Positions 57,333-59,988 of a stretch of DNA of 64,000 nt are shown here, in pieces. Source of the DNA: Escherichia coli (GTDB taxonomy: Bacteria; Pseudomonadota; Gammaproteobacteria; Enterobacterales; Enterobacteriaceae); NCBI RefSeq assembly GCF_044324875.1, contig NZ_CP172185.1. The stretch is one strand, 5' to 3'. The position numbers and the translations under genes were made by a program. The notes under the pieces were generated by a model, which made no database searches, had not been told where the DNA came from, and saw nothing but the letters and a program-made list of their open reading frames with translations. Positions within the stretch are counted from its first letter, which is position 1. Every line of letters starts with the position of its first letter.

Positions 57333-57859
57333 CTACTGCCAGCTAATCTGCGCCCTGCCGTTTTTCTTACTCTTATACAGTCGCTCATCCGCCAGCATTT
57401 TCAAGCGTTCAACGGTAGTACATTCATTTGAATGCGCTACACCGATACTGGTGCTTAAATTAATGCTTCCCACCTGGAAATGAACAATTTCTTTTAGAAT
57501 CGATAGCAACTCTTCCAGCGTTCCACCCGTATAAATCACCGCAAATTCGTCACCGCCGAAGCGGTAGACTTTACCTTTATCTACGGGGATCTGTGATTTA
57601 AGGATTTTCACCACTTTCATCAACACTTCATCGCCCAGCAAATGACCGAAGGTGTCGTTGATGTTTTTGAATTTATCGACGTCAAACAGGCACAAATAAC
57701 CGCCTTTTTCCGGCAGCGCTTTTAAATCTTCGTCAAAGGATTTTCTGCCCATTGCTTTGGTCAGGTCATCCAGGAACGCCGAGTTATACAGACTGTAGAG
57801 TTTTTTGACATCGGCAGCCGAAAAGAAAAGCCCGCCATCCAGTACGCGTTCAAAATGGT
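57333..57859 (-). pseudogene. dgcI: 3' fragment of a diguanylate cyclase gene (GGDEF domain, most likely dgcI/yliF) truncated by IS1
   Basis: Frame is open from the IS1 junction; reads ...[21 protein letters not shown]...[27 protein letters not shown]...[11 protein letters not shown]... (complete GGDEF domain) with no upstream membrane or sensor part. Confidence 0.7.
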
Positions 57860-57874
57860 GGTAATGACTCCAAC

Positions 57875-58378
57875 TTATTGATAGTGTTTTATGTTCAGAT
57901 AATGCCCGATGACTTTGTCATGCAGCTCCACCGATTTTGAGAACGACAGCGACTTCCGTCCCAGCCGTGCCAGGTGCTGCCTCAGATTCAGGTTATGCCG
58001 CTCAATTCGCTGCGTATATCGCTTGCTGATTACGTGCAGCTTTCCCTTCAGGCGGGATTCATACAGTGGCCAGCCATCCGTCATCCATATCACCACGTCA
58101 AAGGGTGACAGCAGGCTCATAAGACGCCCCAGCGTCGCCATAGTGCGTTCACCGAATACGTGCGCAACAACCGTCTTCCGGAGCCTGTCATACGCGTAAA
58201 ACAGCCAGCGCTGGCGCGATTTAGCCCCGACATAGCCCCACTGTTCGTCCATTTCCGCGCAGACGATGACGTCACTGCCCGGCTGTATGCGCGAGGTTAC
58301 CGACTGCGGCCTGAGTTTTTTAAGTGACGTAAAATCGTGTTGAGGCCAACGCCCATAATGCGGGCAGTTGCCCGGCAT
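57875..58378 (-). CDS. insB: IS1 InsB' frame
   Basis: Translation identical to the copy A insB frame. Confidence 0.9.
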
Positions 58379-58572
58379 CCAACGCCATTCATGGCCATAT
58401 CAATGATTTTCTGGTGCGTACCGGGTTGAGAAGCGGTGTAAGTGAACTGCAGTTGCCATGTTTTACGGCAGTGAGAGCAGAGATAGCGCTGATGTCCGGC
58501 GGTGCTTTTGCCGTTACGCACCACCCCGTCAGTAGCTGAACAGGAGGGACAGCTGATAGAAACAGAAGCCAC
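58297..58572 (-). CDS. insA: IS1 protein InsA
   Basis: Translation identical to the copy A InsA. Confidence 0.95.
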
Positions 58573-58627
58573 TGGAGCACCTCAAAAACACCATCATACA
58601 CTAAATCAGTAAGTTGGCAGCATCACC

Positions 58628-59811
58628 GCCAGATACTGATTATTGTTGGACTCAATAATCGCCATATTTTTAATAAAACCGCTTTCCTGATCGTAAGAGA
58701 TCAGTGAGAGCAATTTATTTGACCGTTCAATTTCGGCATCTTTCATTTCCGCGATCGAATTTTTGATGCTGATAATCTCTTTCGCATCGCCTTCGCGAAT
58801 TTTCAGAGCCTCGATCTGATCCGTTGAGTCGGGCAAAAACGCCAGCGTATTAACCAGCTCGGTCATTTCAGAAAATTGCCGACGGAACACACGAGTGGTC
58901 ATTAAATAAACCACCAGCAATACGATAATAATGAAAGCAAACGGCAGATAAAAAAGTTTATCTGATGCGTTCAATAAATTACCGCCAGGATAATAAAAAT
59001 AGATTTCGAATAATGCGTTGTTTGGCACCGCTGATGTTTTTTCGATATATTCAGTATCGACAGAATCAATAATATTATAATTACCTTCGCTATTATAAAT
59101 AATCAGTTTTTCACGCGCGAGTTGATTCTTGGCAATGATCTCATGGCCTTGTTTCAAAAATAGAACTTCATCATTAGCGCTGATTTGATCAAGATACTCG
59201 TTCAGATATCGCCAGTTTAAATCGACATGTATTTTATCCACCGCTAACAAATCGTGATCTTTGCCGTTGATGCGTAGCGTAAAAGAGATACATTTTTTAC
59301 CCGGACGATCAAAGCAATTGTAGGCCGGATTCCAGCTGTTGTTAGAGTCATCTGAAGCCACCGACCATGGTCGTTTCACTGGATTAAAATCGGCAAAAAT
59401 AACCCGCCCTGACTCGTCGACAAGCGGTCCATTTACTTCTTCCTGATGATAAACAACGATTTTATCATTCGCCCTCCGCGAAAAGAGATAATATTTATTA
59501 TCATCAAGTACCAGTCCCACCGAGTCTAAAAATGGCATCATTTCCATTTTAAGGATCACAGCGCGTTGAATCTCCTCTGTATTTTTTAATAAATACAGTG
59601 AGTCCTTTAATGTCAGGGCCGAACGTTCAATATCTTTAAAGAAATAGCCAACGTTTTTCTGAATAAGTTCAAAGCGGCTATCGGCACGTTTTACCGCGCG
59701 TTCCGATACCAGTTGATAGTTAATGATGAAAAAAAGGCCAATAAATGACAGTGCTGCCAATAAAAATAAAATTATCAGCCTTATCTTTATCTTTTCATAT
59801 AAACTCAGCAT
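58628..59811 (-). pseudogene. pdeI: 5' fragment of a membrane-anchored c-di-GMP signalling gene (TM - periplasmic domain - TM; most likely pdeI/yliE) truncated by IS1
   Basis: From MLSLYEKIKIRLIILFLLAALSFIGLFFI (TM1), a ~280-aa extracytoplasmic domain and a second TM (LFYLPFAFIIIVLLVVYLM); the frame runs into IS1 and stops after 7 IS-encoded codons; no catalytic domain present. Confidence 0.6.
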
Positions 59812-59988
59812 GTTAATACATTTAACAAAATAACTGTCTGAACGCTGTGCCGCTGCAAAAACAGTCCCTTGCTGCGGCTTTTTAACCAAATTACCCGATT
59901 CTACAAAATCAGCAGAAAGTTACAACACTTGCTTAGGGCAATAATTTCCTGTGAGGTGATTACCCTTTCAAGCAATATTCAAACGTAA

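Follow-up and report, generated by a model that had tools for sequence, protein, structure and literature searches.

In the 64,000-nucleotide stretch of Escherichia coli DNA analysed here (the window), a single intact copy of IS1 replaces the 1,974 bp that join pdeI and dgcI in other E. coli. This natural, IS1-associated deletion is of a familiar type and has removed the 3' part of pdeI and the 5' part of dgcI, as had been proposed from the letters of the window alone.

Each flank of the element, termed IS1 copy B in the following, was compared by megablast with 5,426 complete genomes of E. coli. The segment at 57333..57859 is the 3' part of dgcI (yliF) and 58628..59988 comprises the 5' part of pdeI (yliE) together with the gsiD-pdeI spacer; both genes are annotated in thousands of RefSeq E. 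coli genomes. E. coli XJ6.1, which has the closest intact locus (coordinates given as L001), served as the reference for the deletion. There, rimO is followed by a toxin-antitoxin pair of the RelE/ParE-HTH type and then by dgcI (442 aa), pdeI (782 aa) and gsiD. K-12 MG1655 carries the same pdeI-dgcI pair, and the order gsiD-pdeI-dgcI-rimO, with the protein lengths that the original prediction had given, is seen in K-12 and XJ6.1. Window positions 50334..57859 match L001 1..7527 with 99.93% identity and the window from 58628 onward matches L001 from 9502 onward with 99.6% identity, both flanks being collinear with XJ6.1 in native order and orientation. Aligning the flanks to the intact genes, the check that had been suggested, defines the deleted interval: window position 57859 corresponds to L001 7527 and 58628 to L001 9502, and the intervening L001 7528..9501 (NZ_CP074356.1:3134629-3136602) is absent from the window. 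This stretch consists of nucleotides 1-802 of dgcI (802 bp from its 5' end), a 7-bp spacer and nucleotides 1185-2349 of pdeI (1,165 bp from its 3' end). A 4-bp BLAST overlap at the right junction was considered as microhomology and rejected as not meaningful, being made up of three chance matches and a mismatch (CACA versus CACC). The breakpoints are therefore the IS1 termini themselves and coincide exactly with both ends of full-length copy B.

IS1 copy B occupies 57860..58627 on the minus strand (768 bp, intact), with its IRR end at 57860 and its IRL end at 58627, and is transcribed in the direction of pdeI and dgcI. Its termini read GGTAATGACTCC... and ...GGCAGCATCACC. Both the length and the ends, GGTAATGACTCCAACTTATTGAT at 57860 and GGTGATGCTGCCAACTTACTGAT at 58627 when read on the other strand, agree with the IS1 family, whose members measure ~768 bp and have an imperfect terminal inverted repeat of ~23 bp. 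The same holds for the coding organization. The list of open reading frames contains insA (58297..58572, minus strand, 91 aa) and the overlapping insB' frame (57875..58378, minus strand), and the A6C slippery site (AAAAAAC) for the programmed InsAB' -1 frameshift is located at 58315..58321. Copy B is 99.7% identical to the element annotated in RefSeq as 'IS1-like element IS1A family transposase, programmed frameshift' at the corresponding locus of strain YZ22MPE54. A promoter-like match on the minus strand (58620..58593) lies inside the IRL, the expected place of the IS1 promoter.

Comparison of both flanking 9-mers revealed no 9-bp (sometimes 8-bp) target-site duplication at copy B: CAAAATGGT (57851..57859) and GCCAGATAC (58628..58636) have nothing in common, as the original prediction had stated. 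The pattern of a simple insertion, that is one contiguous gene with a duplicated target, was thus not found; the flanks belong to two genes and carry no duplication. The window contains a second copy of the element, IS1 copy A (40437..41204), which is 100% identical to copy B, lies in the opposite orientation and is bordered on both sides by a perfect 9-bp duplication, GTTCGGCGG. Since an identical copy has a perfect duplication, the element normally makes one and its lack at copy B is significant. Such a duplication characterizes an insertion event rather than the element as such.

The pdeI remnant spans 58628..59811 on the minus strand and retains the first 1,184 bp of the gene (394 codons plus 2 nt). 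An earlier placement of its start at 59889 has to be corrected, because the annotated start is the ATG at 59811 and the TTG at 59889 is a mere upstream extension of the open frame. Full-length PdeI contains the Pfam domains CHASE9 (residues 35-150) and EAL (532-767). From codon 395 on, the degenerate GGDEF region and the whole EAL domain are lost. The truncated reading frame (58606..59811, minus strand) encodes 401 aa, terminates 22 nt inside the IRL of IS1 and ends ...NNQYLAVMLPTY; CHASE9 is its only match and no EAL domain was found in it. By hydropathy, transmembrane segments lie at ~10-32 and ~286-308, enclosing a periplasmic part of ~255 aa, which is shorter than the ~280 aa originally predicted, and followed by ~86 cytoplasmic residues. 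The description of this side as the start of a membrane-anchored sensor protein without a catalytic domain was accurate: the N-terminal, membrane-anchored CHASE9 sensor with its two transmembrane segments is present and the C-terminal catalytic EAL domain is absent. Judged by its domain content, PdeI would be reduced to a membrane-anchored CHASE9 sensor stub devoid of the EAL phosphodiesterase domain, and the gene in the window is best regarded as a pseudogene remnant that would not encode a functional member of the PdeI family.

On the other side of the element, the dgcI remnant (57333..57859, minus strand) consists of the last 527 bp of the gene and holds codons 269-442 with the stop codon, preceded by 2 nt of codon 268; the sequence matches dgcI of XJ6.1 with 100% identity throughout. 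Full-length DgcI has the Pfam domains GAPES2 (residues 26-229) and GGDEF (295-437). Codons 1-268 are deleted and with them both transmembrane segments and the GAPES2 sensor, and the promoter and the start codon are gone as well. The N-terminal TM-GAPES2-TM module is therefore absent, and a GGDEF domain with an intact motif is present. The earlier view of a complete GGDEF domain without any N-terminal part is borne out in so far as the entire Pfam match including the RFGGDEF motif is encoded, but the first in-frame start, Met304 at 57752, lies inside this match and opens a reading frame of only 139 aa. Towards its 5' side the frame runs into a stop codon within IS1 (57918..57920), and no promoter-like site was found between copy B and Met304. 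Promoter, ribosome-binding context, start codon, membrane anchor and sensor all appear to be missing for the GGDEF-coding region, and the remnant is not translatable from the native start. The chimeric remnant that had been thought possible does not exist: the pdeI frame stops within IS1 and the dgcI frame is closed there too. As IS1 separates the remnants and each frame is closed, a PdeI-DgcI fusion protein is impossible. On the basis of domain content, both enzymes are probably lost and the locus should yield neither activity. When the 139-aa open reading frame was looked up, it led to lineages unrelated to this one, with a dgcI interrupted by nonsense or frameshift mutations, so that loss of dgcI is not exceptional.

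With regard to the origin of the deletion, we consider insertion of IS1 followed by an IS1-promoted adjacent deletion to be the most likely route and hold this with moderate confidence, because it requires the fewest events, is classical for IS1 and has a precedent in the IS150-associated deletions of the LTEE. IS1 would initially have inserted into pdeI or dgcI with a normal 9-bp duplication. The transposase would then have acted on a second target in the same molecule, ~2 kb from the first, by intramolecular replicative transposition ('adjacent deletion'), the intervening DNA would have left as a circle with one IS1 copy, and the chromosome would have retained one IS1 with one old and one new flank, which would account for the lack of a target duplication at copy B. 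The window has the structure of an IS-promoted adjacent deletion in that the deletion ends at an IS terminus, next to an element that has remained intact, and the order and orientation of the flanks are unchanged. Reif and Saedler reportedly described the classical IS1-promoted deletions of the gal region in 1975. With these the window shares the start at an IS1 terminus, the intact element, the native orientation of the flanks and the absence of a target duplication, but the classical cases stem from laboratory selection whereas the window represents a natural isolate lineage and is assigned to this class by structure only. For 14 of 14 IS150-associated deletions of the LTEE, an IS had already been present at the position concerned (PMC11708052).

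Homologous recombination between two IS1 copies in direct repeat would end in the very same structure, and the window does not distinguish between the two routes. In this case, two direct-orientation insertions, one at the pdeI target GCCAGATAC and one at the dgcI target CAAAATGGT, would have been followed by RecA-dependent recombination that deleted the 1,974 bp and one IS1. We regard this as a possible but clearly less probable origin. It would leave exactly what is observed, namely one IS1, flanks from different insertions and no target duplication, and adjacent deletion and IS-IS recombination are both recognized as standard causes of missing duplications (PMC11708052). The pdeI-dgcI locus has also been hit repeatedly by IS1 in other strains, as detailed below. 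IS1 prefers AT-rich DNA, and pdeI (41.7% GC) and dgcI (43.8% GC) are AT-richer than the window (50.1% GC). However, three events are needed, including two insertions in the same orientation within 2 kb, as opposed to two events for insertion plus adjacent deletion. Furthermore, the product predicted for a simple insertion at the dgcI site, DgcI(1-270) followed by G, is not on record, which is a weak test as the XJ6.1 allele was used as the query; neither junction was found as a contiguous match in any of the 5,426 complete genomes, and none of these is a simple-insertion relative at either junction.

A third route, in which insertion is simultaneous with the rearrangement, has been proposed for other insertion sequences (PMC11708052). 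Here, the loss of the 1,974 bp and the arrival of a new IS1, for example in the break made by the deletion, would have coincided, with neither a prior IS1 nor a target duplication. Movements of IS5 and IS481 coincide with large rearrangements and lack duplications (Ngan et al. 2024, PMC11708052), and a single step is compatible with the fact that no intermediate is known at either junction, although absent intermediates among sampled genomes are weak evidence. Such a process is not known for IS1, and every deletion case of the LTEE was a prior insertion followed by adjacent deletion (PMC11708052). We therefore deem a single step improbable.

The deletion is real, is rare in E. coli and characterizes a single lineage. 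Of the 5,426 complete genomes, 5,392 contain at least 80% of the deleted stretch. A protein identical to the 401-aa PdeI'::IS1 product has been deposited as SRB20242.1 [Escherichia coli], with 49 contigs in 52 blocks, and its occurrence in about 50 draft contigs, for example in assemblies GCA_002467655.1 and GCA_027706465.1, indicates that the truncated PdeI genuinely marks a lineage. A Shigella origin, considered in view of the density of IS1, was not retained, as this deposit is from E. coli. A draft contig of GCA_002467655.1 matches window positions 58501..64000 with 100% identity and breaks off 127 bp into IS1. Another draft contig, of 17,070 bp and with nfsA::IS1, consists of 41205..57859 (16,655 bp) and ~207 bp of IS1 at each end; from this composition, an independent assembly also breaks at the left junction. 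These contigs speak against an assembly artefact, in which two IS1 copies around a retained 1,974-bp segment would have been collapsed into one. The two IS1 copies of the window are 100% identical and such repeats are the usual cause of collapse, but the window is contiguous through both of them, independent draft contigs end in IS1 at both junction positions, and the small IS1-bounded contig to be expected would encode the DgcI(1-270)+G product that is missing from the record. We consider a collapse very unlikely. Equally, an inversion between copies A and B, which are identical, oppositely oriented and 16.6 kb apart, with mismatched flanks but no deletion, can be dismissed with near certainty, because it would not remove 1,974 bp, copy A has its perfect 9-bp duplication and 41205..57859 aligns collinearly with XJ6.1 without a change of orientation relative to the two outer flanks.

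Among the complete genomes, 7 have an IS1 no more than ~650 bp from the dgcI junction and 26 have one equally close to the pdeI junction. In strain YZ22MPE54, IS1 disrupts pdeI as in the window; unlike the window, this is a simple insertion with the target duplication ACCCAGCTC and with the flanking DNA kept. Strain CFSAN061763 likewise differs from the window in having a simple IS1 insertion at pdeI/dgcI with a 9-bp duplication, GACTTTACC, and intact flanking DNA. Strain FCI5 (NZ_CM172810.1) resembles the window in that a single IS1 of the same orientation, without a target duplication, separates the 5' stub of pdeI from the 3' stub of dgcI. Its breakpoints differ, however: pdeI retains 1,785 bp and dgcI 906 bp, and ~1 kb is lost. 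The FCI5 element is a different variant (annotated as IS1B, 99.0% identical), and the RelE/HTH module beside dgcI is lacking. The FCI5 and window deletions are independent. In FCI5, IS1 sits 1 bp from the YZ22MPE54 insertion site and the DNA from there into dgcI is deleted, so the YZ22MPE54 insertion and the FCI5 deletion may be viewed as a natural analogue of insertion followed by deletion. Taken as an observation in its own right, IS1 insertions at pdeI-dgcI are independent in several lineages, with two only 1 bp apart, and at least two independent deletions have joined the stubs. One could speculate that the gene pair is a recurrent and possibly selected target of IS1 inactivation and that the 401-aa CHASE9 stub is expressed and acts on its own, e.g. 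by titrating a ligand or partner, but we think that this is improbable.

Two genes of c-di-GMP turnover are lost in one E. coli lineage, for which the deletion is a marker. Mechanistically it offers nothing new, being a textbook IS1 deletion; its main use lies in annotation (two pseudogenes and no fusion protein) and in marking the clone. Insertion sequences disrupt genes and delete DNA between or beside their copies in E. coli and Shigella lineages that are rich in such elements. Compared with such IS-driven gene loss, the event described here affected only 2 kb and two accessory signalling genes. As cited in PMC5635171, Povolotsky and Hengge count YliF (DgcI) among eight GGDEF/EAL genes present in 61 of 61 genomes. 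In strain CFT073, deletion of yliF led to higher adherence to bladder cells and deletion of yliE left motility unchanged (PMC3484386). By analogy with the CFT073 yliF result, a modest adhesion or biofilm phenotype of the deletion is conceivable. The literature covered on pdeI/dgcI/yliE/yliF and IS1, which did not extend to the main comparative GGDEF/EAL study, does not describe this deletion.

With respect to the relative age of the two IS1 events in the window, only 8 contigs are recorded with the chimeric NfsA'::IS1 product that copy A creates. As the pdeI'::IS1 junction is more widespread, nfsA::IS1 is probably the younger event.

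Insertion of IS1 into the pdeI-dgcI locus, which encodes two neighbouring c-di-GMP genes, was not confined to the strain studied here. In the E. coli strains FCI5, YZ22MPE54 and CFSAN061763, pdeI or dgcI had been struck by IS1 independently (L005 4030..4797, L006 2383..3150 and L002 2966..3733, respectively, in the loci of these strains). The pdeI insertion sites of YZ22MPE54 and FCI5 lie 1 bp apart, and FCI5 carries a separate IS1-associated pdeI-dgcI deletion of its own, of approximately 1 kb. Because of these independent hits, the near-coincidence of the two pdeI sites and the distinct deletion in FCI5, the pdeI-dgcI region is suggested to be a local hot spot for IS1.

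The dgcI gene is also found broken by small mutations. In other lineages (L007-L013, locus coordinates about 3092..4420), it is split either by nonsense codons, located at codon 292 or 294, or by 1-bp frameshifts, for example within an A6 run. All of these splits give rise to the same 139-aa C-terminal ORF starting at Met304, and 256 blocks list this ORF. The loci L011 and L012, both of which reside on multi-megabase contigs, may contain sequencing errors.

Between rimO and dgcI, the window carries a toxin-antitoxin module on the plus strand (56558..57263) that pairs a 128-aa toxin of the RelE/ParE family with a 109-aa HTH antitoxin. Of the 5,423 E. coli genomes with any match to a query comprising this module and the dgcI remnant, 1,128 matched at least 80% of the query at a single place, O157:H7 being among them. 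DH1 and DH5a, laboratory strains derived from K-12, are devoid of the module.

The other IS1 element of the window, copy A (40437..41204), is a simple insertion close to the 3' end of nfsA that is flanked by a 9-bp duplication, GTTCGGCGG, and leaves a chimeric NfsA'::IS1 ORF of 225 aa (41183..41860, minus strand). Nitrofuran resistance is known to arise through loss of nfsA. IS1 lies within or adjoining nfsA in 50 complete E. coli genomes, none of which has the element at the site occupied in the window, and the chimeric product is on record for just eight contigs.

Collinearity with E. coli XJ6.1 begins only at 3695, immediately upstream of yljB and cspD. At the position matching window 1..3694, XJ6.1 has clpS and clpA instead; the window carries a tyrosine integrase (2297..3535, minus strand) and a small AlpA-like regulator (1668..1964, minus strand) at this left end, which has the appearance of the border of an integrated island or a rearrangement. 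Further differences from XJ6.1 were seen at two sites. A 3.5-kb segment in the artJ-rlmC interval (29119..32632), present in the window and not in XJ6.1, carries genes for three proteins: a 493-aa sulfatase-like protein, a 106-aa PTS EIIB-like protein and a 447-aa PTS EIIC/SgaT-like permease. Downstream of aqpZ, XJ6.1 has an IS110-family element (L004 15053..16436) that is missing from the window, the corresponding position there being 11407/11408.
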